From: an uncultured Planctomycetia bacterium
Lineage (GTDB): Bacteria; Planctomycetota; Planctomycetia; Pirellulales; Thermoguttaceae
Assembly (NCBI GenBank): GCA_963779975.1
Contig: CAWAAL010000024.1
Location: forward strand, 57,153-121,152
DNA: 64,000 nucleotides
Direction: 5' to 3'
A program made the translations under genes and the position numbers. The notes under the pieces were generated by a model. That model was not told where the DNA came from. It searched no databases and saw nothing but the letters and a program-made list of their open reading frames with translations. This document shows, one piece after another, positions 3,913-61,400 of this stretch (the first letter of the stretch is position 1; every line of letters begins with the position of its first letter).

Positions 3913-4113
3913 GGATCACCACCCCTATATATTAGGGGGCGGAACCGGTAAACTTACAGTCGGACGATGTATTTCAGACTGTATGCTGCGCGTCCTACCG
4001 ATCGCCAGATCGCCCTTGGGCGATTGCCGGCGAACACGTCAAGTCGCGCCTTGCCCGAGTTGTCTACAAAGGCAATCTGGCCATAAGCGATAAGGCGGGG
4101 CCGCGTAGGAACG

Positions 4114-7100
4114 ATGCTTGCGAGCGCTGATTTGTCGCGCAGGAGGAGCAAGGTGTCGAATAGAAAGGTGAAAACCACCGTCAAGCGAGCGCCCACATCG
4201 CTAGAAAACGTAGAACCGGACATGCCAGCCGTCCCCCCGGTGGAGGAGAGGCCGGCTGTAGAGGCAGATTTGGGCGTGCATCCGAAGGCGGGCTTTCCCA
4301 TCGTCGGCATCGGTGCGTCGGCCGGCGGTTTGGCGGCGTTTGAGGCTTTCTTTTCCGGGATGCCTGCCGAGACCGATCCGGGCATGGCCTTTGTCCTGGT
4401 GCAGCATCTGGCCCCGGACCATAAAAGCATCCTCTCCGACCTGGTCAAACGATATACGCGCATGCAGGTCTTCGAGGTCGAGGACGGAATGCCGGTCAGG
4501 CCCAACTGTGCCTACATTATTCCACCCAATCGGGACATGGCCTTTCTGGACGGTACGCTCCAGTTGCTGGAGCCGGCTCGCGCCGCGCGGCCATCGCCTG
4601 CCGATTGACTTCTTCTTCCGCTCTCTGGCCCAGGACCAACACGAGCGGGCGATCTGCATCGTGCTCTCGGGCACCGGTAGCGATGGTACGCAGGGAGTGC
4701 GGGCGGTCAAGGGCGAGGGCGGCATGGTGATGGTACAGAACCCCGAATCCACCGAGTACGACGGTATGCCGCGCAGCGCCATCGCCACTGGACTGGTGGA
4801 CTACGTGCTGCCGCCCGCCGAGATGCCGCCCCAGATCATCGCCTACGTCGCCCATGCATTCGGCAAAAAACCCCGGCCGGTCTCTCCCCCGGCTCCCAAG
4901 GCCGGAGACGCGATGAAGAAGGTCTTTATCCTGTTGCGAGTCCAGACCGGCCACGATTTTTCGCAGTACAAACAAACCACGATCAACCGCCGCGTCGAGC
5001 GGCGCATGGCCGTCCACCAGATCGAACGGTTGAATGAGTACGTTCGTCACTTGCAGCAGACCCCGGCCGAAGTGGAGGCCCTCTTTCGCGATCTCTTGAT
5101 CGGCGTCACCAATTTCTTTCGCGACCCGGAGGCGTTCGCGGCGCTGAAAGGAACAGGTCATCCCGCGACTTTGTGCCGACAAGGACGCGGGGGCAGCGAT
5201 CCGCGTCTGGGTGCCTGGTTGCTCCACCGGCGAGGAAGCATTTTCCATCGCCATCCTGATCCAGGAGCAGATGGAACTGCTGAAGCAGAGTTGCAAAGTG
5301 CAGGTGTTCGCCACGGATATTGATCGCCAGGCCATCGAACAGGCCCGCACCGGTATCTATCCCGTCAGCATTGCCGCCGACATTTCACCGGAACGACTAT
5401 CGCGGTTTTTCGCCCAGGAGCCGGACGGCACGGCCTATCGCGTCAACAAAAGCCTCCGCGACCTATTGGTCTTTTCCGAGCAGGACGTGATCAAAGACCC
5501 GCCGTTTTCCAAACTGGACATGATCAGTTGCCGCAACCTGTTGATCTATATGGGCGGGGATCTCCAGAAGAAGCTCATGCCCCTGTTCCATTACGCACTA
5601 AAGCCGGGCGGCACGCTCTTCCTGGGAACCTCCGAGACCGTGGGCGAGTTCGCGGACCTGTTTTCCACGCTGGACCGCAAGTCGAAGCTGTATCAACGCA
5701 AAGAGAACGGTTCTGGCGCACAACGCCCGGCCATGGGAAAGTATCTTCCGCCCCTGACGGAAGGTGAAACCGCTTTACGGCCCTCCGCGAAGGCTCCCGG
5801 CGAAAGCACGTTCCGACTGCGCGAGTTGACCGAACGGGCGTTGCTGCAACAGTACGCCCCGGTCGCTGCGCTGATCAACCAACGCGGCGACATCCTGTAC
5901 CTCCACGGCCGTACCGGCTTGTACCTGGAACCAGCCCCAGGCGAACCCGGCATGAATATCCTGAAGATGGCCCGCGAAGGGTTGCGGCAAGAACTGACGA
6001 CTGCCTTGCACAAGGCTGTGGCCAGCAGAGATTTGGTGCGGCATCCGGGACTGCGGGTCAAAACCAACGGCGACTTCACCTTGGTCGATCTAACGATCCG
6101 GCCGGTAGCGGCAGGCCCCAGACGCCGCCACTGATTCGGCCCTGTTTCTGGTCATCTTTGAGGAATCGCCGCCGACAGTCCAGCAGCGGCCGGAAAAGGC
6201 CATAGCCGTGGATTCGGTGCAAGGCTCGGACTCCGGCGCCATGGATGTCGATGCGCGGATCGCGGCGCTCAAGCAGGAACTGCGGGCCAAGGAAGAATAC
6301 CTCCAGACCACGAACGAGGAATTGGAGACATCCAACGAAGAACTGAAATCCTCCAACGAGGAGATGCAGTCGGTCAACGAAGAGTTGCAATCCACGAACG
6401 AGGAACTGGAAACCTCCAAGGAGGAACTGCAATCGGTCAACGAGGAACTGGCCACGGTCAACGCCGAGTTGCAACAGAAGGTGCTCGATCTCTCGCGGGC
6501 CAACAACGACATGAACAATCTGCTGGCTGGTTCGGGCATTGGTACAATTTTCGTGGACTATCAACTGCACATCCAGCGATTTACTCCCGCTGTCACCCAG
6601 GTCATCAACCTGATCCTGACCGACGTGGGGCGGCCCGTGGGGCACATCGTATCCAACTTGGCTGGTTATGACCGCCTGGTGGAGGACGTGAAGGCCGTCC
6701 TGGACACCCTGGTTCCCAAGGAGGTTGAAGTGCAAACCAAGGCGGGTGCGTGGTATTTGCTGCGAATCCGGCCCTATCGTACCCTGGAGAACGTGATCGA
6801 AGGCGCGGTGATTACCTTCACGGAGATTACCGAAATGAGAAATGCCCAGGCAGCCCTGCGGGAATCCGAGGCCCTGCGCCGCCTGGCCGTCGTGGTGCGC
6901 GATGCGCAAGATGCCATCCTGATGCAAGACTTGGAGGGACGCATCCTGGCATGGAACCCGAGTGCGGAGGCAATGTACGGCTGGAGCGAAGCCGAGGCGC
7001 TGACGATGAATATCCGCGACCTGATCCCGGAAGGGCAGCGGGAGGGCACGTCCGCCATGGTGAAACAGATTGCTCGTGGTGGGATCTTGGAGCCCTATCA

Positions 7101-7272
7101 CACGCAACGGATCGCCAAGGACGGCCGGATCGTGGAGGTGCGGCTGTCTGCCACTGCCTTGATGAACGAAATCGGAAAAGTGTATGCCATCGCGACCACG
7201 GAGCGGGAGATACGCGGGCAAGATGAGGATAGGGCCTCTATGGTCACGAGAAGGAAGCCTGGCCATGACTAA
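4114..7272 (+). CDS. CheB methylesterase - CheR methyltransferase - coiled coil - PAS sensory protein, 3 frameshifts in this sequence
   Basis: Track ORFs 4114..4608, 4313..5323, 5211..6134 and 6208..7272 read as one protein. Motifs: GIGASAGGLAAFEAFF, LPIDFFFRSLA, VWVPGCSTGEEAFSIAILI, NEEL-repeat coiled coil, two PAS. Frame changes lie near 4575-4590, 5149-5152 and 6116-6121. Confidence 0.8.
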
Positions 7273-8995
7273 GAAACGACCTCGTGCAGACGATTTCGCC
7301 GATCTGCGTCGGCGGGCGGAGGAAAAGGCTCACGCCGACGAGGCCCAGGTTCAGAAACCGCTATCGCCCAAGGAATCCGGACGGCTGCTCCACGAGTTGC
7401 AAGTGCATCAGATCGAGCTGGAGATGCAGAACGAGGAACTGCGCCGGGCACAGGGCGAACTCGAAGCCGCGCGGGCGCGGTATTTCGACCTCTTCGACCT
7501 GGCGCCGGTGGGCTATTTCACCCTCAGCGAACAGGGGCTGATCCTGGAAGCAAACCTCACGGCGGCCAGTTTACTGGGCGTGGAGAGACGCGACTTGGTC
7601 AAGAAGCCGTTGACGCGCTTCATCCTTCCGGAGGACCAGGATATCTACTACCGGCATCGCAAGCAACTCTTTGAAACGGGCACGCCGCAGGTGTACGATC
7701 TGCGAGTGCTGCGTGCAGACACCGACCCCTTCTGGGCGCGTTGGGAGACGACCGAGGCGCAGGATGCTGACGGTGCGCCCGTGTGCCGGGCCGTGATGAG
7801 CGACATTACCGCGCGGAAGCAGGCAGAGGAGAAGTTGGCCGAACTGGACCGCCGCAAAGATCAATTTCTGGCGATGCTCAGCCATGAACTTCGCAACCCT
7901 CTTGCCCCCATCCTCAACTCCGTGCAACTGCTTCAACTCCAGAAAAGCCAGAACTCCGTTCAACAAAAGGCCCTGGCCATCATCGAGCGACAGGTGGGGC
8001 AACTGACGCACTTGGTTGGCGACCTGTTGGAAGTCTCCCGCGCGATCACCGGCAGGATTCAGCTTTGCCAAGAGCAAGTCGCCGTGAACAGCATCGTGGA
8101 ACGTGCCCTGGAGACGGCTCGTCCGCTGATCGACCAGCGCAAACATGAACTCACGGTGTCGCTGCCGCAAGACCCGATTTGGCTGTACGCCGACGCCTCC
8201 CGGCTGGAGCAAGTCGTGACGAACCTCCTCACCAACGCCGCCAAGTACACCAAGGAAGGCGGTCACATCTGGCTCTCCGCCGAGCAGGAGGGCGACAAAG
8301 CGGTGTTGCGCGTGCGGGATACGGGCCTCGGCATTGCTCCCGCGTTCCTGCCTCACGTCTTCGAATTGTTCACGCAAGCCGAGCGGTCATCCGACCGTTC
8401 GCAGGGCGGGTTAGGCATTGGATTGACCCTGGCGAAGCGGCTGGTCGAAATGCACGGAGGAACCATAGGGGTCTCCAGCACTTTGGGGCAAGGTAGCGAG
8501 TTCGTCGTGAGCCTTGTCGTCTGTCCGCCAGGAACGATCTCGGGCCGGGCCGGGTACCAGCGCAGCGGGTGGGCTTGCGGGTGGCAGCCGCCTGCAACGG
8601 AAATAGCCAGGCCGACCGAGTCAGTCTTGCGGGTCCTGGTGGTGGACGATAACCTGGATGCGGCGAATGCCTTGAAAATGCTGGTGGAGGAAGCGGGGCA
8701 TTTGGTGCGGATGGCTTACACCGGCCCGACGGCATTGGCAGCGGCCCTCGATTATCGGCCCGACGTGATGCTGCTGGACATCGGCCTGCCGGAGTTGGAT
8801 GGCCTTGAAGTGGCAAAGCGGATACGTCAGGAGCCCCTACTCCGCGACATCGTGCTAGTAGCCGTGACGGGGTATCGACAGGCGGCAGACCGGCAACGTG
8901 TGCTGGAAGCGGGGTTCGATCACTATTTGGTCAAGCCCGCCGACTTCGAGAAGGTGCGACAAATCTTGGCGGAGGTCGCGGAGAAGGCGACCTGA
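7265..8995 (+). CDS. hybrid sensor histidine kinase (PAS-HisKA-HATPase_c-REC)
   Basis: ATG 7265 overlaps the end of the upstream gene. LAMLSHELRNPLAPI (H-box), GLGIGLTLAKRLVEMHGG, and a C-terminal receiver (VLVVDDN...MLLDIGLPELDG). Confidence 0.85.
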   Translation: MTKKRPRADDFADLRRRAEEKAHADEAQVQKPLSPKESGRLLHELQVHQIELEMQNEELRRAQGELEAARARYFDLFDLAPVGYFTLSEQGLILEANLTAASLLGVERRDLVKKPLTRFILPEDQDIYYRHRKQLFETGTPQVYDLRVLRADTDPFWARWETTEAQDADGAPVCRAVMSDITARKQAEEKLAELDRRKDQFLAMLSHELRNPLAPILNSVQLLQLQKSQNSVQQKALAIIERQVGQLTHLVGDLLEVSRAITGRIQLCQEQVAVNSIVERALETARPLIDQRKHELTVSLPQDPIWLYADASRLEQVVTNLLTNAAKYTKEGGHIWLSAEQEGDKAVLRVRDTGLGIAPAFLPHVFELFTQAERSSDRSQGGLGIGLTLAKRLVEMHGGTIGVSSTLGQGSEFVVSLVVCPPGTISGRAGYQRSGWACGWQPPATEIARPTESVLRVLVVDDNLDAANALKMLVEEAGHLVRMAYTGPTALAAALDYRPDVMLLDIGLPELDGLEVAKRIRQEPLLRDIVLVAVTGYRQAADRQRVLEAGFDHYLVKPADFEKVRQILAEVAEKAT

Positions 8996-9046: not shown

Positions 9047-9088
9047 TCCGACGTGGCCGAAGGCCTTGGAGTGTTCCGTCACGTCGGC
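9047..9088 (+). repeat. terminator-arm-only copy of the repeated module hairpin, no U-tract
   Basis: CCGACGTGGCCGAAGGCCTTGGAGTGTTCCGTCACGTCGG is ~85% identical to the module terminator hairpin but is followed by CGGGATT. It ends 26 nt before the REC-DUF2294 start codon. Confidence 0.55.
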
Positions 9089-9113
9089 GGGATTGGCGAA
9101 AGAGAGAAAACTT

Positions 9114-9974
9114 ATGCCAGGGACAGGGAAAGTTCTTCGGGTTCTCGTGGTCGATGACGACCGAGACGGTGCGGACACGCTTGGCCTGCTCGTTGAAGAA
9201 CTCGGCAACCAGGTACATGTGACCTATGGCGGGACGTCGGCACTCGACGTTGCGACCGTATTTCGGCCCGACCTGATGTTGATCGACCTGGCAATGCCTG
9301 ACATGGATGGATGTCATCTCGTTGGGCAATTTCGCCAGATTCCGGCCTTCGCGAAGACGCGAATCGTGGCGGTCACCGGCCATGCCAACGAGGGACATAG
9401 AACCTTGGCCATGAAGGCCGGGTTCGATAAGGTCCTCTTCAAGCCTGTTGCTCTGAAAGAAATCAAAGCGGTCTTAGCCAGTGTCGTTCAGGGGGGCGCA
9501 CTTGCGGGCCCATCGCCGCAACCGGCCAAGAAGCATGCGAGTTCCCAAGCAGAACGACGTTTGCCGATTAACGAAGCGCGTAGAATCAGGAAGGATCGCA
9601 AATCAGGAATCCTCACTCAAGCAGAAAGCGAAGCAGCCGTCTGCGAGGGGATCATTCGCTTTCAAGAGGACTATTTGGGAGGGGGGGCGGAGCAGATCCG
9701 CGTACACTTCATCAAAGACCTCCTCGTGATCCGCATTCTGGGTGCTTTGACGGTGGCCGAGCGGCAACTGGTCAAGTCCTTTTCGCCGGAGAAAGGGAGG
9801 GATCTCATCAAGCAGACACGGGAACAACTGCTGGAGTTGGCACGCCCGATGTTGGAATCGATGGTCCATGAGGTCGTGGGCGTGAAGGTGTTGAGCATGC
9901 ACCACGACATCAGTACTGTGACCGGGGAAGAAGTGGTCCTCTTCAGCTTGACCGAGGCACCTCGCTTTTCCTAA
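9114..9974 (+). CDS. response regulator: receiver domain fused to DUF2294 (MpsC-like) domain
   Basis: ATG 9114. REC (LVVDDDRDGADTL...MLIDLAMPDMDG...FKP), a linker, then a full DUF2294 pattern (ESEAAVCEGIIRFQEDYLGGG...LSMHHDISTVTGEEVVLFSL). Confidence 0.8.
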   Translation: MPGTGKVLRVLVVDDDRDGADTLGLLVEELGNQVHVTYGGTSALDVATVFRPDLMLIDLAMPDMDGCHLVGQFRQIPAFAKTRIVAVTGHANEGHRTLAMKAGFDKVLFKPVALKEIKAVLASVVQGGALAGPSPQPAKKHASSQAERRLPINEARRIRKDRKSGILTQAESEAAVCEGIIRFQEDYLGGGAEQIRVHFIKDLLVIRILGALTVAERQLVKSFSPEKGRDLIKQTREQLLELARPMLESMVHEVVGVKVLSMHHDISTVTGEEVVLFSLTEAPRFS

Positions 9975-10248
9975 GGTCGGCAAGCCGCCAGGGCAAAAGC
10001 CGCCAGGGCAAAAGTCGCCACAGACGCCGATCCCCGACACTTGGGAACTACTGTAGAGACCAAGGAGATTCCTCGTGGTCGGGGCAAATTGCATGCAGGA
10101 CATCCTGTTCCACCGCATCGTGACCATTAGGGCGTTTGGGTGGCGAGTCCTCTCTTGGGCTGTTTTCGAGAGCCAGGGCGACACATTCCTCTCCTTGGCT
10201 CCAAGGAGACGCGTTCTTTGAAGCGACGACTTCGCGAGAATAACTCTC

Positions 10249-10396
10249 TTGCCTTTGCCTCATAGCGGCATACAATGATGGCAGAGTCGCGATACACTCG
10301 ATCGCGACTCTGCAACAAGAATGTCGGATGACTAGATAGAGAGCAACCCGGCCGTACGGGGAGGCTCGTTAGTGAGTAAGCCGACGTGGTCGAATA
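10249..10396 (+). ncRNA. GTCGGATGACTAG-box RNA module, copy 1 (3'-truncated)
   Basis: -35 TTGCCT 10249-10254, 16 nt, -10 TACAAT 10271-10276. 13-bp P1 hairpin 10281-10313; box 10323-10335. The terminator 5' arm breaks at 10396 into an antisense gene relic. Confidence 0.7.
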
Positions 10397-10819
10397 GTCG
10401 TACAGCTCGCGCAGTTGCGTTTCCGGCAGTTCGACGGGCGCCAAATACGGGAAGAGCATCATGTGCTCCCAAGGCATCCAGACCAGTGGAAACGACGGAC
10501 GGATTGGCGCACGAGTGAAGGCGAACGGGTTGACGCCGGACAAGGCAATCGTGGACTCGGCCGTGAGTATGAGTTCCGTGTAGGGTTGGCTGATCTCGAA
10601 TCGACTGGCCGAATTGCCAAAGACATCTTCGAATTCCATGATCGGGACGGCGGGAACAATCTGCAAGCGATAGTTCAAGACGCTCTGATGGACGTCATTG
10701 ATCGGCCGCAGGTGGACGCAATGCTTGCTGTGCTGAACGGGCTGATTGTAACCAAACCGGGTCGTGTGCTTGACAGTCAAGCGACGGCTGCCAATCGTGG
10801 ACGGGACGGGCATGGTCAT
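10397..10819 (-). pseudogene. transglutaminase N-terminal-domain (Bact_transglu_N-like) protein, 3'-truncated by module copy 1
   Basis: RLTVKHTTRFGYNQPVQHSKHCVHLRPIND...FEDVFGNSASRFEI fits the family. Similarity ends at ...LRELYDY, after which the ORF translates the module antisense. Confidence 0.6.
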
Positions 10820-10836
10820 GATGAGGGTCTGAACGG

Positions 10837-11241
10837 CTACTTCTTCTTAACGTCGCGGAGCATCGGCGACTCGGCCAGGGTGAAGAGAACGACCTCCTCG
10901 CCGGTGACGGTGCTAATGTCGTGGTGCATGCTCCGCACCTTGATGCCGGTGATCTCCTGGACCAGCGTTTCCAAGATCGGACGGGCCGTTTCGATCAGAT
11001 GCGTCCGCACTTGCTTGAGCAGGTCGCGCCCCTTCTCGGCAGAGAGCGACTTGACGAGTTGCTGCTCGGCGGCGGTCAAAACGCCTTGCAGGCGGACCAC
11101 GAGCAGATCGCCGAGCAGGTGCGCGTGAATATCCTTGGGTCCCCGGCCCATATAGTCCTGCTCGAAGCGTGTCACTGCTTCGCAGACGGCGGATTCGATC
11201 TCTCCGTGGGTTCTCATGGCAATTTCTCGCTGGGTTCTCAA
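10837..11241 (-). CDS. DUF2294 (MpsC-like) family protein, stand-alone
   Basis: IESAVCEAVTRFEQDYMGRGPKDIHAHLLGDLLVVRLQGVLTAAEQQLVKS...MHHDISTVTGEEVVLFTLAESPMLRDVKKK. Divergent from module copy 2. Confidence 0.8.
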   Translation of the reverse strand: MRTQREIAMRTHGEIESAVCEAVTRFEQDYMGRGPKDIHAHLLGDLLVVRLQGVLTAAEQQLVKSLSAEKGRDLLKQVRTHLIETARPILETLVQEITGIKVRSMHHDISTVTGEEVVLFTLAESPMLRDVKKK

Positions 11242-11344
11242 GAAAGTGGATTATAGCAGATGAACGAAGTTGAGGAAAGCGGTCGAGTAACGCCCTTGAA
11301 CCAGTGGAAGGTCGATCGCCCCGGCGTTCTTGCCAGTCGGGTTA

Positions 11345-11530
11345 TAGCCAGTCGGCAAGGGATCGCTAAAATATAGATGTAACCGCTCCAAAGAGCTTGA
11401 ATGCTCGGATTACGATGAATGTTTGTCGGATGACTAGATGAAATACAACCCGGCCTTGCCGGGGGGTTCGTTGAAGAGTAAGCCGACGTGGCCGAATACC
11501 TGCGGGTGTTCCGCCACGTCGGCTTTTTTG
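11345..11530 (+). ncRNA. GTCGGATGACTAG-box RNA module, copy 2
   Basis: Divergent promoter region (TAGCCA, 16 nt, TAAAAT 11367-11372). Box 11425-11437; full terminator; T6 11524-11529. 75 nt to ATG 11605. Confidence 0.7.
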
Positions 11531-11604
11531 TTTCCGTGGTGCAAGACGGTCGGAATCCATTCACGGAAGGCTACTTCTCGGCCCAAGCATTGGAGGATAG
11601 GATC

Positions 11605-12694: not shown

Positions 12695-12880
12695 TTGCCT
12701 TCGCCGCGTAGCGGCGTATGATAGTTGTATTGGGAGAATCGCGGCGCACTTGATCGCGACCTTTCAACGCAATTGTCGGATGACTAGATAGAGAGCAACC
12801 TGGATGTGCCAGGGGGCTCGTTGAAGAGTAAGCCGACGTGGTCGAATGCCTTCGGGTGTTCCGCCACGTCGGCTTTTTTC
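12695..12880 (+). ncRNA. GTCGGATGACTAG-box RNA module, copy 3
   Basis: TTGCCT 12695-12700, 16 nt, TATGAT 12717-12722. Box 12775-12787; P2 variant CCTGG/CCAGG; T6 12874-12879. 74 nt to ATG 12954. Confidence 0.75.
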
Positions 12881-12953
12881 GTTTTCGGTGTTGCGGGAAC
12901 AGTCGCAACGACCGAGCATGGTCCTTGGACAATCTCAAAAAGGGAGAGTTATC

Positions 12954-13075: not shown

Positions 13076-14764
13076 ATGACCGTACGTCACATTTGCCCAT
13101 GGTGCAGAGTCGCCGCACTGGCAACCCTGGGCGCAATAGTTGGCTTGCACAAGGCTACCGCCGTACCGCCGGGCCCGACGGATGCCGCGGATGGGATACA
13201 AGTGCTCACGCGCGGGCCGGTGCATGAGGCCTTCGCGGAAACGGTGACCTTCGATCCGCAACCGGGCATCGTGGCGCCGAAAGCGCCGCCGGCCGCCATC
13301 GAAGAACTTCCGCCGGACCAGAAACCGGAGGGGGCCAACATCGCCTGGATCCCCGGCTACTGGGCCTGGGACGACGAACGAAGCGACTTCCTTTGGGTCA
13401 GCGGCATCTGGCGCGACCTTCCGCCGAGCCGCCAATGGGTGCCCGGTTATTGGGACCAGTCCGGGCAAGGCTACCAATGGACTTCCGGGTACTGGGCGGA
13501 TGCCCAGGCGAGTAACGTGCAATATTTGCCCGAACCGCCTGTGACCGCCGAAGCCGGTCCCAACATTCCGTCGCCTTCGCCGGACGACACTTGGCTGCCG
13601 GGAAGTTGGCTGTGGCAGCAAAACCGCTATGCTTGGCGTCCCGGTCTCTGGGCCACCGCACATCCGGATTGGGAGTGGGTTCCCGCCCATTACCTATGGG
13701 CTCATCGCGGCTATGTTTTTGTCGACGGCTACTGGGATTACTCCATCGGCCGCCGCGGCGTACTGTTTGCGCCAGTGTATTTCAGTGCGGGCATGTATAC
13801 GCAGCCCCGTTTCTCCTATTCGCCCGCGACGGTGATCGATCTGGATGTTTTCACCAACTGTCTGTTCTTGAGGCCGCAATATCAACACTACTATTTCGGC
13901 GACTACTACGCCGACAATTATCAAGCAGCGGGGTTCTACCCGTCGTATTCGTACAACTCCGGCCGCCATGGCTACGATCCGATTTTCACCCACGAGCGCT
14001 GGCAGCATCGCCAGGACGGACAGTGGGAGCGTCGCATTGCGGCCGACTTCCAGAACCGCCGCGATCACGCGGATGCCCGACCGCCGCGGACGTTGGCGGC
14101 GCAAACAGCATTCAGGGCCGGCGAGGCGACGTCCGGAAAGAGGAGTCCCGTGCTGGCCGTGCCGTTCTCCCAATTCACGAAGAGTCAGAATAGTCCGCTG
14201 CGATTCCAGCCGGTCGATTCGTTGGAGCGACAAAAGCTGGTTCAGCACGTGCAAGCGGTGCAACGATTCCGCGAGCAGCGGCAGAAACTGGAGAACCAAG
14301 CAGCGGCGCCCTCAGCCGCCTCAGCGGCGAGACAATTCGCGCCGGCCAACGGGAGACTTCCCACCTCTCCGATCGCGACGAGGTCAAACACGGAACTCGG
14401 CAAGGATCACGTTCCACCCCAGATGCATGTAGCTCCCAAGCCGGATCTCACGGTCGAGGCCAAGCCGAGAGCGACTCCATCGCTGGAGAAACCGCAGCAA
14501 CGCACCGTGAACCGGCTGCCGCTCGATACGCCGAAACCTGAACCCCGGGCCGAACGGCCGGCACCGAAAGCGGAACCCCGGGTCGAACGGCCGGCACCGA
14601 AAGCGGAACCCCCGGTCGAACGGCCGGCACCGAAACCTGAACCCCAGGTCGAACGCCCAGCGCCGAAACCTGAACCCCAGGTCGAACGCCCAGCGCCGAA
14701 ACCGCCGGCAGAGCGACCGGCAGCGGGACCGAACCGAAATGGACAAAAGGAAAAGGGTAAATAG
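13076..14764 (+). CDS. secreted YXWGXW-repeat protein with Pro/Lys/Glu-rich repeat tail
   Basis: ATG 13076 with a signal-like N-terminus. Repeated GYWxW/WxPGxW aromatics (WIPGYWAWDD, WVPGYWDQSG, WTSGYWAD, WLPGSWLWQ). The tail is (PKxEPxVERPA)n. Confidence 0.6.
   Translation: MTVRHICPWCRVAALATLGAIVGLHKATAVPPGPTDAADGIQVLTRGPVHEAFAETVTFDPQPGIVAPKAPPAAIEELPPDQKPEGANIAWIPGYWAWDDERSDFLWVSGIWRDLPPSRQWVPGYWDQSGQGYQWTSGYWADAQASNVQYLPEPPVTAEAGPNIPSPSPDDTWLPGSWLWQQNRYAWRPGLWATAHPDWEWVPAHYLWAHRGYVFVDGYWDYSIGRRGVLFAPVYFSAGMYTQPRFSYSPATVIDLDVFTNCLFLRPQYQHYYFGDYYADNYQAAGFYPSYSYNSGRHGYDPIFTHERWQHRQDGQWERRIAADFQNRRDHADARPPRTLAAQTAFRAGEATSGKRSPVLAVPFSQFTKSQNSPLRFQPVDSLERQKLVQHVQAVQRFREQRQKLENQAAAPSAASAARQFAPANGRLPTSPIATRSNTELGKDHVPPQMHVAPKPDLTVEAKPRATPSLEKPQQRTVNRLPLDTPKPEPRAERPAPKAEPRVERPAPKAEPPVERPAPKPEPQVERPAPKPEPQVERPAPKPPAERPAAGPNRNGQKEKGK
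14531..14722 (+). repeat. 33-bp tandem repeat x ~5.8 (codes PKAEPRVERPA units)
   Basis: Units at 14531, 14564, 14597, 14630 and 14663, plus a partial unit at 14696, read directly from the sequence. Confidence 0.85.
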
Positions 14765-15041
14765 GTCGTCGTGGTTGAGCCTTGACGGCAAGAACACGAC
14801 CGGCTGTGTGCTCGGCGAGCAGTTCGGCAGGTCGAAGGAAGTGAAACGACTTGCCTTTGCCAGAAAGGCACGAGCAAAAACAAGACCGTGACGACGACCA
14901 CTCAGACCAAGGACGGTAAGACAGCAGGCGGGACGACCACGAACGACACGAAGACAAAAACCACTGCTCCTCCCGCTGGCGGCAAGGCGACTGAAAAGAC
15001 GACCGAAACGACCACCGAGACGACCAAGTAGGTTTTGCGAA

Positions 15042-15094
15042 AGCGTTTTCTGAATGCTAGGTATAACCCCTACGCATTCAGAAACGCTATTTTA
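15042..15094 (+). terminator. long hairpin, terminator-like
   Basis: AGCGTTTTCTGAATGCTAGG / CCTACGCATTCAGAAACGCT (about 19 bp, one bulge), followed by ATTTTAT. Confidence 0.5.
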
Positions 15095-16311
15095 TCCTTG
15101 CTTCGCCCGAAGAAATACGAGCTGGAGATTCACGGCGCGAAGGTGAAACCAGGCTTCGAGGTCGATCCCGATGTCCCGGCCTGTCATTCGGAGGTGCGGG
15201 AACGTGTCCATAGGGTCCGGTCAGATCGCCTGTCGCCTTGCGGTTTGAGTCCTTATGACACGCCTTGGCGGCGGAACGACACCGGCCTTGCTGTGCCCAG
15301 TCCCACCGGGCAACCGTCGCTGAACGCCGCACTTTCGCCTCAATCTTCAGCGCCGGAGTCCAATTTTCCCGAACTACAGGCCATTCCCGATCTCGGCCCC
15401 CCGTCGTTCCCCGAAACGAATGGGCGGGAAGGCACGAGCCCGGCCGAGCCAGCCCTTGACCTGACTCGCAGCGTCGGACGGCCGGTCGCGCTTCCGCAGC
15501 AAACGTACACCCGCTCGTCGGAGTTATCCGACCGCTTGACGCAGATCGCACGCGGCAAGGGCATGCTCCCCGGTCAGGGCATCAACGTCTGCTCATAAGC
15601 AACGGCATCGCCCTCATGCACGGCACCGTCCGCACGCCCGGCGACTGCGTCCTGCTGGCGAACGTCCTGGCTCTCGAACCGGAGGTGCGGCAGATTGACA
15701 ACCGCTTGGTCGCCTTCGGTCCTCGGTAGGCTTTTTGGGCGATCGCCGGTGGCCGTTCGGGGTTCCGTGGCATTGACGCTTTGCGGGCGCTATCGTCGCT
15801 TGTACGCACTCCAGGGGGTAACTGGACGGGATTTCGCTGGTGTCGGCCGGCAAGGCCGGGTTCAGGCGATTACCGGGTCGATCGAGATTGTTGGCTGCGG
15901 CACGAATTGACCCGCCGACCTGAAACAGGGCGCGTAGCGTCGGTCCTGCACCACGGCATCCGGTCGAACCACCACCAGACGGCGCCCATGGCCACGAATT
16001 TGGCGGACCACGAGCACGGATTCCGCATTAAGAAGTGGACACCGAATGAGAGTGATGCCCAGAGTGCTGGGCCGGATCAGAAGGACAATGGGCCATGGCA
16101 GAAAGTGAAACCTTCCGGGCGCTGCACGACAACAGTACGACACCAAAGACAAACAGTGCGGCGCTCGGAGGTTCCTCCCGCGCCGGAAAAGCCGAGCCGA
16201 CACCTGTGCCAATGGCGCCGCACGCATGCGCGCTACAGTACCTCATTTCCATCATCAAGAACTCGCAACGCAGGAGCCCGTCACAATAGAACGACTGAAG
16301 GATGGTGCCTC

Positions 16312-17922: not shown

Positions 17923-18105
17923 TTGCCTTTGCCCTTTGGCGGCGTAAAATGTGAGTGTTGGAAGAGTCGCATGGCAGATCGCGCTGCTCCAACGTAATTG
18001 TCGGATGACTAGAAAGAGGGCAACCCGGCCCTGCCGGGGGGCTCGTTAGCGAGTAAGCCGACGTGGTCGAATACCTCCGGGTGTTCCGCCACGTCGGCTT
18101 TTTTC
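17923..18105 (+). ncRNA. GTCGGATGACTAG-box RNA module, copy 4
   Basis: TTGCCT 17923-17928, 16 nt, TAAAAT 17945-17950. Box 18000-18012; T6 18099-18104. 44 nt to ATG 18149. Confidence 0.75.
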
Positions 18106-18148
18106 GTGCTTGGTTGCGCATCACAGTCACTTCACACGGAGACCCACG

Positions 18149-22296: not shown

Positions 22297-22455
22297 TTCG
22301 ATCGGACCCGCGCAATTGGAAATTGCAACAAACTGCGACACGTCGGCACAAACAGCATAACCGTCAAACTTTGCCAACTCGCGGGTGCAAGGTCGCCAAC
22401 AAGCAGCCAAAGCAGGGCCCGACAAGGGTTCGGCGCCACGAAAGGACCTGAACGG

Positions 22456-22543
22456 CTACTACTTCTTTACGTCGCGGAGAATGGGCGACTCGGCGCGGGT
22501 GAAGAAGAACGACCTCCTCGCCGGTGACGGTGCTGATGTCATT
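22456..22543 (-). pseudogene. DUF2294 gene relic (frameshifted 3' end)
   Basis: The reverse strand reads NDISTVTGEEVVL, then is out of frame through one extra T relative to relic 12586-12672. It lies 22 nt left of the copy 5 promoter. Confidence 0.65.
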
Positions 22544-22565
22544 TGAAAGAAGGCCAATAGCCCTA

Positions 22566-22748
22566 TTGCCTTTACCCTTTGGCGGCGTACAATGTGACTG
22601 TTGGAAGAGTCGCATCGCAGATCGTGCTGCTCCAACGAAGTTGTCGGATGACTAGAAAGAGGGCAACCCGGCCCTGCCGGGGGGCTCGTTGACGAGTAAG
22701 CCGACGTGGTCGAATACCTCCGGGTGTTCCGCCACGTCGGCTTTTTTC
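22566..22748 (+). ncRNA. GTCGGATGACTAG-box RNA module, copy 5
   Basis: TTGCCT 22566-22571, 16 nt, TACAAT 22588-22593. Box 22643-22655; T6 22742-22747. 30 nt to ATG 22778. Confidence 0.75.
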
Positions 22749-22777
22749 ATTTTCTGCCAGGTTCGGAGTACCCTCCC

Positions 22778-23791
22778 ATGTCGATCTTACCACACTTTCA
22801 CCAACCCCTGCAGACCGCGACAAAACAGCAGATTTTCCAGCAACATCGCCATGGCGACTCGGCGGAGTCGCTGGCCCGGCGTTTTTGTCGGTCCTGCACC
22901 CGCATTTACGGCATCATCAAGGAGATCCGGGCCGCACGGATCATGGAACTGCCGCTGGACTCCATGGGCAACGAGCAGTTTGCCCGCCTGTGCTCGGAGA
23001 AGAAGGAACGCGAGATATTACAGCCACCGCCGGAAGGCGATCTGGCGGCGAAGAAGTCGCGCGTGCCCGCCGGCATGCCCGCGTATCTGGCCAACCTGTA
23101 CGACGTGCCCCTGCTGACGCACGAGGAGGAGGTCCATCTCTTTCGGAAGATGAACTATCTCAAGTTCAAGGCGAGCGGGCTCCGCGACGCCCTCGACGTG
23201 AACCGGCCCAAGAGTTGCCTGATGGACCAGATCGAGGATCTGTACGACGAATCGGTCGCAGTCCAGAATCAGATCATCCGCGCCAACCTGAGGTTGGTGG
23301 TCGGGATTGCCAAGCGGTACGTCGGTCCGGCGGAAGACTTCTTCGAACTGGTCAGCGACGGGAACATGTCGTTGATCCGCGCCGTGCAGAAGTTCGATGT
23401 TTCGCGGGGCAACAGGTTCAGTACGTACGCAACTTGGGCGATCATGAAGAATTTCGCCCGCACGATCTCCGACGTGCTCCGTCAGCGGGGCCGTTTTTGC
23501 ACGAACCACGCGGAAACGTTCGGCGGCGCCGAGGATGACCGCACGGACCAGTACGAGCAGGCGTCGGCCCAAATCCAGCGGGAATCGCAAGTCGAGGGGA
23601 TCCTCGAGCGACTCGACGAGCGGGAGCGGCAGATTGTCACGAGCCGTTTCGGCCTGGCGCGCGGCCAGGAACCGCTGACCTTGAAGCAGGTCGGGGCTGC
23701 GATCGGCGTAACCAAAGAGCGGGTCCGTCAGATCCAGTGCCGGGCGATGAGCAAATTGAGAACGGCTGCCGAGGAGGACGGAATCGAGTGA
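22778..23791 (+). CDS. alternative sigma-70 family factor (regions 2-4, long N-terminal extension)
   Basis: ATG 22778. [72 protein letters not shown]...TLKQVGAAIGVTKERVRQIQ. Confidence 0.8.
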   Translation: MSILPHFHQPLQTATKQQIFQQHRHGDSAESLARRFCRSCTRIYGIIKEIRAARIMELPLDSMGNEQFARLCSEKKEREILQPPPEGDLAAKKSRVPAGMPAYLANLYDVPLLTHEEEVHLFRKMNYLKFKASGLRDALDVNRPKSCLMDQIEDLYDESVAVQNQIIRANLRLVVGIAKRYVGPAEDFFELVSDGNMSLIRAVQKFDVSRGNRFSTYATWAIMKNFARTISDVLRQRGRFCTNHAETFGGAEDDRTDQYEQASAQIQRESQVEGILERLDERERQIVTSRFGLARGQEPLTLKQVGAAIGVTKERVRQIQCRAMSKLRTAAEEDGIE

Positions 23792-23811
23792 TTCCAAGGG
23801 AAAGGGACAAC

Positions 23812-30237: not shown

Positions 30238-30247
30238 GTCAGCCCCG

Positions 30248-30349
30248 CTATTTCTTCTTCGCGTCGCGGAGCATCGGCGACTCGGCCAGGGTGAAAAGAA
30301 CGACCTCCTCGCCAGTGAGGGTGCTTATGTCATGGCGCATGCTCAACGC
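30248..30349 (-). pseudogene. DUF2294 gene relic (last 33 codons + stop)
   Basis: The reverse strand reads LSMRHDISTLTGEEVVLFTLAESPMLRDAKKK-stop. It lies 47 nt left of the copy 6 promoter. Confidence 0.7.
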
Positions 30350-30396: not shown

Positions 30397-30581
30397 TTGC
30401 CTTTTTTGCGTGGCTGGTTACAATGACCGGTGGGAAGAGTCGCGGCGGACTAGACTGTGGCTTTTCACTGGAATTGTCGGATGACTAGATAGAGGGCAAC
30501 CCGGCCGTGCCGGGGGGCTCGGTAGCGAGTAAGCCGACGTGGTCGAATACCTGCGGGTATTCCGTCACGTCGGCTTTTTTC
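30397..30581 (+). ncRNA. GTCGGATGACTAG-box RNA module, copy 6
   Basis: TTGCCT 30397-30402, 16 nt, TACAAT 30419-30424. Box 30476-30488; T6 30575-30580. 56 nt to ATG 30637. Confidence 0.75.
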
Positions 30582-30636
30582 GTTTTCTGCCAGTTTTGGT
30601 CCAAGCCCCACTTGTTACCCAATGAGGAACTGAATC

Positions 30637-37153: not shown

Positions 37154-38045
37154 AGTCACGTTTGATCATGAAGCAGGCGTCTTGCGGGTCTTGCAGACCA
37201 AGAGCGAGACGAAGGCATTCTACGACAAGATCGCCATGGTCTATGATCTCTTGGCGGAGCATTCCGAGCGGCCCGTGCGTGAAACCGGGCTGCGGCTGCT
37301 CGCTGCTGCCCCAGGTGAGCGCGTTCTGGAAATCGGCTTCGGGACCGGCCATATCTTGGCCGAACTTGCCCGTGCCGTCGGGCCGACGGGAAAGGTCTTC
37401 GGCATCGACATCTCGGAGAACATGTTGGACCACGCAAGAGGCGTTCTGAGCAACAAGGGCCTCATTGACCGCGTTTCCCTTGATTGCGGCGATGCCCAAA
37501 GCCTCCCCTACGGTGACGACTCGCTGGACGGGATATTCATGTGCTTCACCCTGGAACTGTTCGACACGCCGGACATTCCCAAGGTGCTGGCAGAGTGCAA
37601 GCGGGTCCTGCGGCCGCGCGGGCGCATCGTCGTCGTGGCCATTTCCAAGGAGTGTAAAGACGGCAAAGAAGGCAAGGACGGGTTCATCATTCACGCCTTC
37701 GAGTGGACACATCGCCACTTTCCCAATTTGATGGACTGCCGGCCGATCTATGTCCGCCGAGCGCTGGAGGCGGCGGGCTTTGCCATCGAGGACTCGCGGA
37801 CGGAATCTATGTGGATTCCCGTGGAGATTGTGCTGGGCAGGAGGGCCGTCTTCTTGCCTTTGCCCCGAAGCTGGACTCCATGGGCGACGAGCAAATTGCG
37901 AACGGCTGCCGAGGAGGACGGAATCGAGTGCTTTCCAGCGGTGGAGGCGAAGGACCACGAGTCGAGCAGCGAGGCCAGAACATGCCCCCACAGCCCCATG
38001 CCCATAAACATTTCACCGGCACGGCAACCGTCCGCGACATCGTGA
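37143..38045 (+). CDS. class I SAM-dependent methyltransferase; ORF tail reads through unrelated relic sequence
   Basis: VLEIGFGTGHILAELA (motif I), VFGIDISENML, GIFMCFTLELF, LRPRGRIVVV. Family-like sequence ends about 37850. Confidence 0.7.
   Translation: MPDEVTFDHEAGVLRVLQTKSETKAFYDKIAMVYDLLAEHSERPVRETGLRLLAAAPGERVLEIGFGTGHILAELARAVGPTGKVFGIDISENMLDHARGVLSNKGLIDRVSLDCGDAQSLPYGDDSLDGIFMCFTLELFDTPDIPKVLAECKRVLRPRGRIVVVAISKECKDGKEGKDGFIIHAFEWTHRHFPNLMDCRPIYVRRALEAAGFAIEDSRTESMWIPVEIVLGRRAVFLPLPRSWTPWATSKLRTAAEEDGIECFPAVEAKDHESSSEARTCPHSPMPINISPARQPSATS
37854..37930 (+). pseudogene. collapsed relic of a module + alternative-sigma paralog
   Basis: TTGCCTTTGCCC (module -35 region), then GCTGGACTCCATGGGCGACGAGCA (matches 22954-22977, 23/24) joined to AATTGCGAACGGCTGCCGAGGAGGACGGAATCGAGTG (matches 23754-23790, 36/37). 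Confidence 0.55.
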
Positions 38046-38336: not shown

Positions 38337-38522
38337 TTGCCTTTTCCCTTCGGCGGCGTACAATTTCAGTGTTGGAAGAGTTGCGGGGCACTTGTTCGCG
38401 GCTCTCCAGTGAAATTGTCGGATGACTAGATAGAGGGCAACCTGGCTGTGCCGGGGGGCTAGTTGAAGAGTAAGCCGACGTGGTCGAACACCTTAGGGTA
38501 TTCCGCCACGTCGGCTTTTTTG
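38337..38522 (+). ncRNA. GTCGGATGACTAG-box RNA module, copy 7
   Basis: TTGCCT 38337-38342, 16 nt, TACAAT 38359-38364. Box 38417-38429; T6 38516-38521. 84 nt to ATG 38606. Confidence 0.75.
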
Positions 38523-38605
38523 TTTTCTGTGACGCCAAACGGTCGGAATCCAGCACGGAAGACTTCCAGGTTCAAAATCCTGGAGTTGAGCGGAGGTGAC
38601 GAACC

Positions 38606-39052
38606 ATGAGTCGAGATGCAATTGACAGAATGGAAATCCTCATGGTCGAGGATAACTTGCAGAATGCCAACGGCACGATACAGGCCCTCAAATGGGGCAA
38701 CGTGCAATGCCGAGTGAGCCTGGTCTGCGATGACGAGGAAGCGATCCGCTTTCTCTACCGTAAGGGTGAATTCGCCAAGGCGCCGACGCCCAACCTGATC
38801 CTGCTGGACATGCAGTTGCCCAAGGAGGAAGGTCAGCGCTTGCTTGCGGAAATCCGCGCCAACGAAGAACTCAAGGACATTCCCGTTGTGGTCCTCACCG
38901 GTTCACTGGATCACCGAGCGGGTCTTCACGTCCAAGAGATTCAGGTGGACGGCTTGATCACGCACCCCGTGGAGTTGGACAAGTTCATCGGTGTGGTCAA
39001 GTCGCGTCGCCGGTCTTGGTTGACCGACCTTGCGCTGTCCTCCATTGCCTGA
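38606..39052 (+). CDS. single-domain response regulator (receiver only)
   Basis: ILMVEDNLQNA, LILLDMQLPKEEG, PVVVLTGS, and K in DGLITHPVELDKF. Confidence 0.8.
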   Translation: MSRDAIDRMEILMVEDNLQNANGTIQALKWGNVQCRVSLVCDDEEAIRFLYRKGEFAKAPTPNLILLDMQLPKEEGQRLLAEIRANEELKDIPVVVLTGSLDHRAGLHVQEIQVDGLITHPVELDKFIGVVKSRRRSWLTDLALSSIA

Positions 39053-40134: not shown

Positions 40135-40200
40135 ATTTTCTCTTTACGTCGCGGAGAATTGGCGACTCGACCGGGAGACCTCCTCGCGGCTGACGGCGCC
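40135..40200 (-). pseudogene. strongly decayed DUF2294 3' relic
   Basis: TTCTCTTTACGTCGCGGAGAATTGGCGACTCGACC...CCTCCTCGC aligns with the other relics (CTTCTTTACGTCGCGGAGAATGAGCGACTCGGC...CCTCCTCGCC). Confidence 0.4.
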
Positions 40201-40257: not shown

Positions 40258-40444
40258 TTGCCTTTGTACCCTCATGACGTACAATGATGGTGTTGGAAGA
40301 GTCGTGGCGCGATTGATCTCGACTCTCCAGCGAACGTGTCGGATGACTAGATGAAGAGCAGCCCGGCTGTGCCGCGGGGGCTCGTTAGTGAGTAAGCCGA
40401 CGTGGTCGAATACCTTGGGGCATTCCGCCACGTCGGCTTTTTTC
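40258..40444 (+). ncRNA. GTCGGATGACTAG-box RNA module, copy 8
   Basis: TTGCCT 40258-40263, 16 nt, TACAAT 40280-40285. Box 40338-40350; T6 40438-40443. 101 nt to ATG 40545. Confidence 0.75.
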
Positions 40445-40453
40445 GTTTTCCTA

Positions 40454-40525
40454 AGAACGTTCGGAAGAAATTGGTGCCAGTCACACGTTTGTCCCGGGCT
40501 TCCGCTCATTTCTTCCGAACGTTCT
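40454..40525 (+). repeat. second hairpin element (IR2), copy A
   Basis: AGAACGTTCGGAAGAAAT ... ATTTCTTCCGAACGTTCT (18-bp arms, 36-nt interior), immediately after the copy 8 U-tract. Confidence 0.75.
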
Positions 40526-46670: not shown

Positions 46671-46862
46671 TTGCTTTCCTCATGCCGCGCCATACAATGG
46701 TTAATGGAGGGGTGGCGAAGTCGAAAGCCGCTCGCCCCAGAAGTGAATTGGAAGTCGTCGGACGACTAGATAAAGAGCAAGCCGGCCGTGCCGGGGGGCT
46801 CGTTAGTGAGTAAGCCGACGTGGCGGAATACCTCCGGGTGTTCCGCCACGTCGGCTTTTTTC
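46671..46862 (+). ncRNA. GTCGGATGACTAG-box RNA module, copy 9 (box variant GTCGGACGACTAG)
   Basis: TTGCTT 46671-46676, 16 nt, TACAAT 46693-46698. Box 46757-46769; T6 46856-46861. 38 nt to ATG 46900. Confidence 0.7.
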
Positions 46863-46899
46863 GTTCTTGATCGTTTCTTAACCAATACAGAGGATCGTC

Positions 46900-47384: not shown

Positions 47385-47571
47385 TTGCCTTTTTCCCCTT
47401 GCGGCGTATAATGATGGTGCTGGCAGAACCGCGACGCACTTCATCGCGACTCTGGCAGTGAAATTGTCGGATGACTAGATAGAGAGCAACCCGGCCGTGC
47501 CGGGGGGCTCGTTAGCGAGTAAGCCGACGTGGTCGAATACCTGCGGGTGTTCCGTCACGTCGGCTTTTTTG
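47385..47571 (+). ncRNA. GTCGGATGACTAG-box RNA module, copy 10
   Basis: TTGCCT 47385-47390 (8 nt after the DUF1328 stop), 16 nt, TATAAT 47407-47412. Box 47466-47478; T6 47565-47570. 29 nt to ATG 47600. Confidence 0.75.
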
Positions 47572-47599
47572 TTTTCTTACCCGAAAGGAAGGTGCCACA

Positions 47600-48138: not shown

Positions 48139-48339
48139 TTGTGCTTCTCTTTCCGTACGGTATAATTGGAGTGTGCTGCGAGGCGGCGGAGAGCTCCGCG
48201 CGACTTGCTGACGCAGTGGATTTGAATTCGTCGGATGACTAGATAAAGAGCAACTCGGCCGGAATGGCCGGGGGGCGCGTTGAAGAGTAAGCCGACGTGG
48301 GCGAATGCCTTTGGGTGTTCGGCTACGTCGGTTTTTTTG
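48139..48339 (+). ncRNA. GTCGGATGACTAG-box RNA module, copy 11 (most divergent)
   Basis: TTGTGC 48139-48144, 16 nt, TATAAT 48161-48166. Box 48230-48242; P2 variant CGGCC-ggaat-GGCCG; T7 48332-48338. 109 nt to ATG 48448. Confidence 0.7.
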
Positions 48340-48349
48340 TTTTCTGCTT

Positions 48350-48421
48350 AGAACGTTCGGAAGAAATTGGTGCGAGTCCCGCGTTTTTCCAGGGCTTCCG
48401 CCCATTTCTTCCGAATGTTCT
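48350..48421 (+). repeat. second hairpin element (IR2), copy B
   Basis: AGAACGTTCGGAAGAAAT ... ATTTCTTCCGAATGTTCT, same position relative to the module U-tract as copy A. Confidence 0.75.
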
Positions 48422-61295: not shown

Positions 61296-61316
61296 CGCTT
61301 TCGCCCTCTACGGCAT

Positions 61317-61400
61317 TTCCCCGTCAGGAAGCAATACTTCCCCGTCAGGAAGCAATGTTTCCCTATCAGGAAGCAATGTTTCCCTATCAGGAAGCAATCG
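61317..61400. repeat. 21-bp tandem repeat x4 upstream of guaC
   Basis: TTCCCCGTCAGGAAGCAATAC / TTCCCCGTCAGGAAGCAATGT / TTCCCTATCAGGAAGCAATGT / TTCCCTATCAGGAAGCAATCG. Each unit carries TTCC-N6-GGAA. Confidence 0.85.

Follow-up and report, generated by a model that had tools for sequence, protein, structure and literature searches.

A structured terminator leader coupled to DUF2294 genes in Planctomycetota

Within 64,000 nucleotides (nt) of DNA from an uncultured Planctomycetia bacterium (assembly GCA_963779975.1, contig CAWAAL010000024.1, positions 57,153 to 121,152; hereafter the window), genes and gene fragments of the DUF2294 family lie beside copies of a repeated module that is predicted to form an RNA leader ending in a terminator. 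What ties a protein family of no established function to this leader, and do its members act on it? To the first part of the question the answer is firm: the DUF2294/module coupling in the window is the local, partly decayed form of a Planctomycetota-wide cassette, in which a free DUF2294 gene (A-type) and the module lie divergently beside each other. To the second part we offer answers of graded strength, in which readings with the RNA-binding protein CsrA as reader of the leader rank first, and those in which DUF2294 proteins bind DNA or the module is a mobile element rank last.

DUF2294 sequences and module copies in the window

The region is GC-rich (~0.6). The module combines a sigma-70-like promoter (TTGCCT-N16-TACAAT) with a first hairpin that varies between copies and a 111-nt core that is conserved, running from TTGTCGGATGACTAG at its start to a long GC-rich hairpin and T6 at its end. 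The window's ten full cores were used to build a covariance model, which recovers them at 107-131 bits, every one on the plus strand between 11.4 and 48.3 kb; the model also picks up a truncated copy (10321-10416, 47 bits) and, at 9048-9087, a match to the hairpin alone (25.8 bits). No Rfam 15 family matches at its gathering score anywhere in the 64 kb, and module copy 4 gives only chance-level matches (E > 1). PF10057 (MpsC, formerly DUF2294) exceeds its 23-bit gathering score in two window genes. Four further pieces, too short for the Pfam profile, were assigned to the family by tblastn and blastn with the intact free gene; beyond these, nothing else in the 64 kb falls below E 0.1. All four are on the minus strand and retain only about the last 30 codons of the A-type gene. 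The DUF2294-derived sequences are as follows.

9114-9974, plus strand: REC-DUF2294 response regulator, 286 amino acids (aa); Response_reg (PF00072) 77.9 bits, MpsC 98.4 bits
10837-11217, minus strand: free A-type DUF2294 gene, 126 aa from the ATG at 11217, the open reading frame (ORF) extending to a TTG at 11241 (134 aa); MpsC 122.7 bits
12578-12678, minus strand: relic 3, 30 aa at 80% identity, E 2e-9
22448-22549, minus strand: relic 5, frameshifted, DNA 91% identical over 93 nt
30247-30346, minus strand: relic 6, 31 aa at 90% identity, E 1e-13
40136-40196, minus strand: relic 8, weak, 11 aa at 82% identity, DNA 85% identical over 40 nt (E 5e-5), with an internal deletion

The module copies, located with the covariance model and all on the plus strand, are listed next.

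10249-10416: copy 1, promoter TTGCCT-16-TACAAT, first hairpin and truncated core
11345-11533: copy 2, promoter TAGCCA-16-TAAAAT, first hairpin and 111-nt core (11423-11533), divergent from the A-type gene; promoter and first hairpin divergent in sequence
12695-12883: copy 3, promoter TTGCCT-16-TATGAT, core 12773-12883
17998-18108: copy 4, core, with no DUF2294 sequence nearby
22566-22751: copy 5, core 22641-22751
30397-30584: copy 6, core 30474-30584
38415-38525: copy 7, core, leading into a single-domain response regulator (38606-39052)
40258-40447: copy 8, core 40336-40447
46755-46865: copy 9, core
47464-47574: copy 10, core
48228-48342: copy 11, core

An earlier note on this DNA had described six DUF2294-derived sequences, two intact genes and four 3' relics, all touching the module family. 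Pfam, tblastn/blastn and the covariance model bear this out, and its coordinates and distances are correct, with the caveat for the count that relics 3 and 5 have their junction in common, and so are not independent, and that relic 8 is weak. From the end of each relic to the -35 box of the module on its right there are ~17-24 nt for relics 3 and 5 and ~50-60 nt for relics 6 and 8. An A-rich "…AAAGNCAA…" found left of the promoters that bear relics looks like a remnant of the opposing A-type -35 box.

The cassette across genomes and the origin of the relics

Related loci were collected in two ways. A scan with the A-type protein, keeping one genome per species, gave 78 loci (L008-L085, 76-91% identity) from Planctomycetota metagenome-assembled genomes labelled Thermoguttaceae, Pirellulales, Gemmataceae and Phycisphaerae, the closest relatives being peat and soil genomes labelled Planctomycetaceae or Thermoguttaceae. 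In their 1.2 Mb there are 133 non-overlapping modules, of which 130 are opposite in strand to the A-type gene, some at a distance of several kb. A divergent module stands beside 73 of 88 A-type genes, with its core 124-473 nt from the ATG (median ~217); most of the 73 distances are ~200-230 nt, and that in the window, from the ATG at 11217 to the core of copy 2, is 206 nt. One of the exceptional A-type genes lies at a contig edge, and in L087 an A-type gene occurs with no module.

The second sample came from a metagenome scan with the module pattern and was independent of the protein. There, a divergent A-type gene lies within 700 nt of 24 of 85 modules (28%), a second type of DUF2294 gene (B-type) directly downstream of 17 of 84, and csrA downstream of 9 of 63; when both flanks are available, 23 of 67 modules touch a DUF2294 gene. 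The enrichment is very large, because the family has only a handful of genes per genome. Co-occurrence across genomes, which the earlier note had proposed as a check, is thus found from the protein side and from the RNA side alike, and the link goes beyond local chance. Several A-type/module units occur per genome, and the islands in the 78 loci are arrays of co-oriented cassettes, with A-type as the principal gene on the other strand. In L007 (7903-11010, minus strand) a module heads an operon of KaiC-like, KaiB, PAS and A-type DUF2294 genes, and so ties DUF2294 to signalling genes of a clock or stress type.

The module beside an A-type gene most often heads the B-type paralogue, a protein of 147 aa that is ~30% identical to A-type, is conserved at 78-98% among its 120 best-scoring clusters and carries only PF10057 in precomputed Pfam annotation. 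The next gene after B-type is csrA (PF02599). The B-type stop overlaps the csrA start by 7 nt in the sequence ATGTTAG, which is the commonest csrA start context among the 8 commonest variants (20 of 48 csrA genes) and agrees with the gene calls of L001. Next to the 71 modules divergent from an A-type gene, B-type comes first in 46 and csrA follows in 37; a module lies at most 400 nt upstream of 53 of 58 B-type genes, and B-type precedes 41 of 48 csrA genes. Among 146 first ORFs downstream of modules, MpsC is the commonest Pfam family (36), followed by receiver domains, sigma-70 factors, YflT, BON, DUF3309, CsbD and CsrA. From these families it follows that the leader heads a regulon of general-stress type, with CsbD, YflT, BON and DUF3309 proteins, sigma factors and response regulators. 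No B-type gene is present in the window, which does hold a remnant of csrA.

15122-15211, plus strand, inside the ORF at 15035-15598: csrA relic, residues 29-58 of 70 at 70% identity (tblastn with the CsrA of L001)

Its N-terminal strand, MLVLSRK, is gone. The ancestral divergent DUF2294/leader unit pictured in the earlier note exists, but the note had missed both the B-type and csrA genes downstream and the window's own csrA relic.

Read as RNA, the module is a leader of ~160 nt. Its variable first hairpin is followed by a GUC-GGAU-GAC mini-hairpin, which is conserved, then by a long second hairpin and the intrinsic terminator. Across 147 distinct copies, compensatory changes are seen in 26 of the 36 pairs proposed, and the share of paired cells is 96.8%, against ~40% with the partners slid; folding z-scores are -5 to -6.6. 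On this covariation and predicted folding the module is evidently a real structured RNA. The terminator helix has 20 bp with 14 covarying pairs and is followed by T6, and ORFs begin 26-106 nt past it. With its own promoter, a GC-rich stem with a U-run and a co-oriented ORF nearby, the module has the make-up of an intrinsic-terminator leader (transcription attenuator), at which read-through would be conditional. A generic terminator scan did not report the module terminators, which were identified by folding and covariation. GTCGGA(T/C)GAC stands at the core start in all but ~5 of 106 copies (those with the 15 commonest start variants, out of 137 unique copies); in the minimum-energy fold, GGAU forms the 4-nt loop of a hairpin with a 3-bp GUC/GAC stem. 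We also considered an antiterminator pairing between the 5' GUCGG and the CCGAC of the terminator; by reading the sequence it reaches 5-6 bp at most, which is too weak.

The promoters have a conserved layout as well. The motif TTGnnn-N15-18-TAnnnT is found in 121 of the 137 unique copies, and in 99 its end falls ~46-65 nt ahead of the core. L012 has the A-type promoter (TTGCCG-18-TATTAT) and that of the module placed back to back, with ~10 nt between their -35 boxes, and the intergenic consensus of 45 loci agrees with this arrangement.

How did the relics arise? The earlier note had proposed that a divergent unit was duplicated repeatedly and that DUF2294 copies were then deleted. Orthologous loci speak for such losses. 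L011 has a cargo gene and module orthologous to window positions 22643-23793 with an intact A-type gene in front; relic 5 matches the 3' end of that gene, and the window lacks ~460 nt by comparison. In the case of relic 8, the module and cargo gene are found in L021 beside an intact A-type gene, though with ~800 nt more between the two, and the flank to the left of the relic is syntenic with L054 sequence downstream of an intact A-type gene. Because orthologous cassettes in L011, L021 and L054 keep the intact gene, the alignments show relics 5 and 8 as A-type paralogues deleted in place. Relics 3 and 5 are 95% identical and share a single deletion junction, relic 6 is 91% identical to the intact gene and 76-78% to relics 3 and 5, and relic 8 is ~62% identical to all others. 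A single ancestral truncation copied four times was dropped as the sole explanation, since relic 6 is nearest to the intact gene and intact genes persist in L011, L021 and L054; it still holds for the pair of relics 3 and 5.

Copy 5 combines two sources. Its first hairpin is 90% identical to that of the relic-free copy 4 and 61% to that of copy 3; because it nevertheless has the relic junction of copy 3, it is a mosaic of a copy 3-like relic and a copy 4-like hairpin, with the crossover near the -35 box. Recombination between copies, at the conserved promoter and core, therefore also spreads relics. The history proposed in the earlier note thus stands as regards the common unit and its loss in place, but relics 3 and 5 count as one junction, and recombination has to be added to duplication and deletion. 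In the window, then, every A-type copy but one has been reduced in place to about its last 30 codons, and recombination has reshuffled what was left. Elsewhere, C-terminal relics beside modules are rare: of 123 regions upstream of modules in other genomes, one has such a relic.

The surroundings of the copies are unstable. Synteny with the 95-97% relatives L086 and L087 stops exactly at the stop codon of REC-DUF2294, and the island beyond it (9975 onward) is rearranged, a hypervariable array of co-oriented promoter/leader/cargo cassettes whose order and content vary between close relatives. Short segments at 23742-23798 and 37882-37938, and at 22954-22983 and 37870-37899, are 90-91% identical; they are shared by the gene downstream of copy 5 and the region ~450 nt upstream of copy 7, and are further evidence of a shuffling of gene fragments in the island. 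A transglutaminase-like gene (10127-10819, minus strand) with only its N-terminal domain (Pfam Bact_transglu_N) is interrupted by the truncated module copy 1, and L087 has a 272-aa minus-strand gene just past REC-DUF2294, which by its position is a candidate counterpart of this truncated gene.

Several other repeats were seen. Immediately past the terminators of copies 8 and 11 lies an 88-nt repeat (40438-40525 and 48334-48421, 85% identical) with a long inverted repeat (AGAACGTTCGGAAGAAAT ... ATTTCTTCCGAACGTTCT), which may be a second structured element in these two leaders. At 61316-61398 there are four tandem 21-nt units of consensus ~TTCCC(C/T)(G/A)TCAGGAAGCAAT, each with a short palindrome, which could be an array of protein-binding sites. 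In-frame tandem repeats occur at 14498-14737, where six 33-nt units encode ERPAPKxEPxV at the C-terminus of a WXXGXW-repeat protein downstream of copy 3, and at 45828-46466, with five copies, four of them at 72-nt spacing.

Candidate readers of the leader

The REC-DUF2294 gene bears directly on this question, and two features precede it.

7184-8995, plus strand: hybrid histidine kinase, PAS-HisKA-HATPase-REC (Pfam), ending 118 nt upstream of REC-DUF2294
9048-9088, plus strand: hairpin-only variant of the module terminator, with no T-run (repeat family D5; covariance model 25.8 bits, model positions 61-100)

The acidic pocket of the receiver is in place (the DD pair and D58), with D14, D15, D58 and K110 invariant in 37 homologues, and the architecture recurs in at least 120 clusters at 79% identity or more; one database protein (P0121) is 100% identical. 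Pfam finds Response_reg and MpsC and no other output domain, and the ANTAR domain (PF03861) is absent from the scan. In the AlphaFold2 model (pLDDT 82.9) the linker at residues 128-146 is disordered, and a conserved arginine-rich helix (ERRLPINEARRIRKDR, residues ~147-162), confidently predicted, comes right before the DUF2294 domain. The gene order CheB/CheR-PAS protein, hybrid kinase, REC-DUF2294 is kept in L086 and L087, where, as in the window (4000-8995), a fused CheB-CheR-PAS protein and the kinase stand directly upstream of the regulator. These three genes look like a dedicated signalling pathway with DUF2294 as its sole output domain.

The hairpin ends 25 nt ahead of the REC-DUF2294 ATG. 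It is present where the earlier note had placed it as part of the coupling, but it does not amount to an ancient link: compared with L019, whose orthologous intergenic region lacks it, it is a clean insertion of 41 nt, and it recurs only in three 95-98% relatives (L086-L088). It is a lineage-specific copy of the terminator hairpin and speaks weakly for an old association of REC-DUF2294 with the module.

The A-type protein is highly conserved, at 82-91% identity among at least 120 clusters (the 120 best-scoring), and ~1,600 representatives at 50% identity match it at E <= 0.001. Its AlphaFold2 model is alpha-beta-beta-alpha-alpha-beta-beta (pLDDT 86.8). A sequence search of the PDB with DUF2294 gave no match, and the top fold matches (BcsD, TRAPP Bet3, V4R and YslB) are weak, none significant. 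Pfam recognises no nucleic-acid-binding domain, helix-turn-helix included, in DUF2294 proteins. A-type has an isoelectric point (pI) of 6.6, B-type one of 5.1-5.2 and the DUF2294 domain of the REC-type one of 5.35; pI alone is not decisive, as the CsrA of Bacillus subtilis is acidic too. That DUF2294 reads the RNA or its DNA, as the earlier note had suggested, so far finds no support in domains, fold matches or pI. A-type ends in a conserved KKK tail. A-type and REC-type have C12, H33 and H98-H99-D100 as invariant residues, which B-type lacks by reading of its sequences; this hints at a bound metal or ligand in A-type.

The reading that we rank first takes the locus to be a conserved stress-regulon cassette with CsrA as the reader of the leader and DUF2294 proteins as modulators of CsrA. 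Taken jointly, with its well-supported structural part included, we give it an even chance. The A-type gene and the module face outward from back-to-back sigma-70-like promoters, and the leader terminator would be controlled by a protein at the invariant GGA hairpin, most likely CsrA. DUF2294 proteins would then be trans-acting signalling partners that modulate this reader, and not readers of nucleic acid themselves: B-type would be made together with CsrA, A-type would be a free sensor or adaptor, and REC-DUF2294 would be the version put under phosphorylation control by the adjacent hybrid kinase. Since leaders stay intact after A-type loss, DUF2294 would act in trans, if on the module at all. 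CsrA is placed as the reader because it is the sole known RNA-binding protein in the cassette and because the most conserved unpaired element of the leader is the GGA hairpin. A GGA in a short hairpin loop is the kind of site that CsrA/RsmE targets carry, and the predicted fold presents one. DUF2294 proteins are cast as CsrA modulators because the B-type/csrA overlap recalls fliW-csrA.

Several observations weigh against this account. csrA follows only ~14% of modules and is a relic in the window, so that an intact csrA elsewhere in this genome is assumed. There is a single conserved GGA hairpin per leader, where well-studied CsrA targets usually have two or more sites; a second GGA, at about -41 within the stem of the first hairpin, is found in just 26 of 137 copies, and a Shine-Dalgarno GGA is not discriminating. 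Neither a DUF2294-CsrA fusion nor another telling one occurs among the best matches, homologues and representatives alike, which are single-domain proteins or fragments, bar one B-type match fused to CsbD (P0273). Finally, the A-anchored loci are biased to module-rich islands.

A broader proposal makes DUF2294 a new post-transcriptional signalling domain which, with CsrA and the shared attenuator RNA, would constitute a Planctomycetota-wide general stress response. A-type, B-type and REC-DUF2294 would here either bind the leader directly or switch CsrA on or off it. We put this forward tentatively, as appreciably less probable than the CsrA-reader account.

It is unlikely, on the same evidence, that the DUF2294 genes are nothing more than cargo. 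They would then be the regulon's oldest and most frequent members, with A-type sharing a bidirectional promoter region and adjacency reflecting duplication history. MpsC tops the families downstream of modules as any cargo might, A-type copies decay beside intact leaders, about two thirds of modules have no DUF2294 neighbour, and the A-type gene of L087 does without a module. Against this, A-type keeps a near-fixed distance and a divergent orientation beside leaders with differing cargo, beyond what is expected of a passive passenger; its sequence conservation among the 120 best-scoring clusters is high; and the receiver fusion next to a kinase, together with the KaiC-KaiB-PAS operon, indicates a signalling role.

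Of much the same low probability, and in our view doubtful, is the idea, raised in the earlier note, that DUF2294 itself is the RNA-binding factor at the leader terminator. In the manner of ANTAR response regulators, the REC-type, phosphorylated by the adjacent kinase, and the A- and B-types would bind the leader and decide between termination and read-through. Its attraction lies in a physical coupling that is tight and conserved, in a response regulator of widely conserved architecture that has no other output domain, and in the arginine-rich helix and the KKK tail. But no known RNA-binding domain is detected by Pfam, none of the top fold matches is an RNA binder, the pI range is 5.1-6.6, and the operon itself encodes a bona fide RNA-binding protein, CsrA, behind a leader with a CsrA-type site. 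CsrA is thus an equally or more plausible candidate for the reader than DUF2294.

That A-type is a DNA-binding transcription factor controlling itself and the divergent module, as in a classic divergent regulator/target pair, is very improbable. The divergent promoters with their closely spaced -35 boxes would suit such a factor, but Pfam finds no helix-turn-helix or other DNA-binding domain, no fold match is a DNA binder, the protein is acidic to neutral, and leaders with no A-type neighbour retain the same promoter. Least credible of all is a mobile module or hairpin that inserts in or beside DUF2294 genes and leaves truncated copies: the clean insertion relative to L019, the abutment of the truncated copy 1 on a truncated transglutaminase-like gene and the rearranged island would fit, but no 5' part of DUF2294 lies on the far side of any module, so that the relics are internal deletions, orthologous cassettes with an intact A-type gene have the same module in the same place, each copy comes with a promoter of its own and points the same way as its cargo, a clean indel is shown by the 41-nt hairpin alone, neither terminal repeats nor target duplications nor a transposase turned up, and C-terminal relics are as rare elsewhere as noted above.

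Significance and known systems

DUF2294/MpsC, which has lacked an established function, gains a testable context, namely the A-type gene, leader, B-type gene and csrA on the one hand and the kinase/REC-DUF2294 pair on the other. One structured leader standing many times per genome before stress-type genes defines a regulon from sequence alone, with three candidate regulators. Should B-type prove to be a partner of CsrA, a further kind would join the protein antagonists FliW and CesT. If DUF2294 binds RNA, it would represent a new RNA-binding fold. And if DUF2294, CsrA and the attenuator RNA form one system, dozens of stress operons per genome would share a single RNA element as their point of control. 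We found nothing relevant in the literature on DUF2294/MpsC in connection with CsrA, Planctomycetota gene regulation or an RNA leader, and nothing in the literature or Rfam on CsrA gene regulation or this leader RNA in Planctomycetota.

The nearest parallel to the B-type gene is FliW-CsrA of Bacillus subtilis and many other bacteria. Like fliW, B-type directly precedes csrA, with which it is translationally coupled; this suggests by analogy that it may be a protein partner or antagonist of CsrA, in place of sponge RNAs. Unlike FliW, to which it has no sequence relationship (Pfam MpsC only), B-type has no flagellar context and sits in an operon with a structured terminator leader. The leader itself recalls those of CsrA/RsmA targets and the sponges CsrB, RsmY and RsmZ in its near-invariant GGA in a short hairpin loop, and such a hairpin upstream of csrA itself would allow CsrA autoregulation. 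The sponges, however, carry many GGA hairpins, whereas here there is one that is conserved, in a promoter-proximal terminator leader ahead of coding genes and with no Rfam match.

ANTAR regulators such as EutV, AmiR and NasR likewise combine a receiver with an output that does not bind DNA, an adjacent sensor kinase and a terminator leader common to many operons. REC-DUF2294 differs in having no ANTAR domain, and its leader has one GGA tetraloop hairpin and one long hairpin instead of the dual hexaloop hairpins of ANTAR targets. The PhyR-NepR-sigma EcfG system of Alphaproteobacteria also has a receiver fused to a paralogue of a free regulatory domain, an adjacent sensor kinase and general-stress genes (CsbD); here there is no sigma-like domain and no anti-sigma factor, and regulation apparently runs through an RNA leader, so that the analogy is one of logic only. 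PF10057 owes its name to MpsC of the mpsABC locus of Staphylococcus aureus, a member of the same family. No MpsA/MpsB-type genes were found among the annotated genes of the window or the called genes of related loci, and the context in Planctomycetota is one of signalling (receiver domain, kinase, KaiBC, CsrA), for which the Pfam name is no tested guide to function. Set beside these systems, a terminator leader controlled by a protein is of a known kind, while its components and their combination in Planctomycetota appear to be new.

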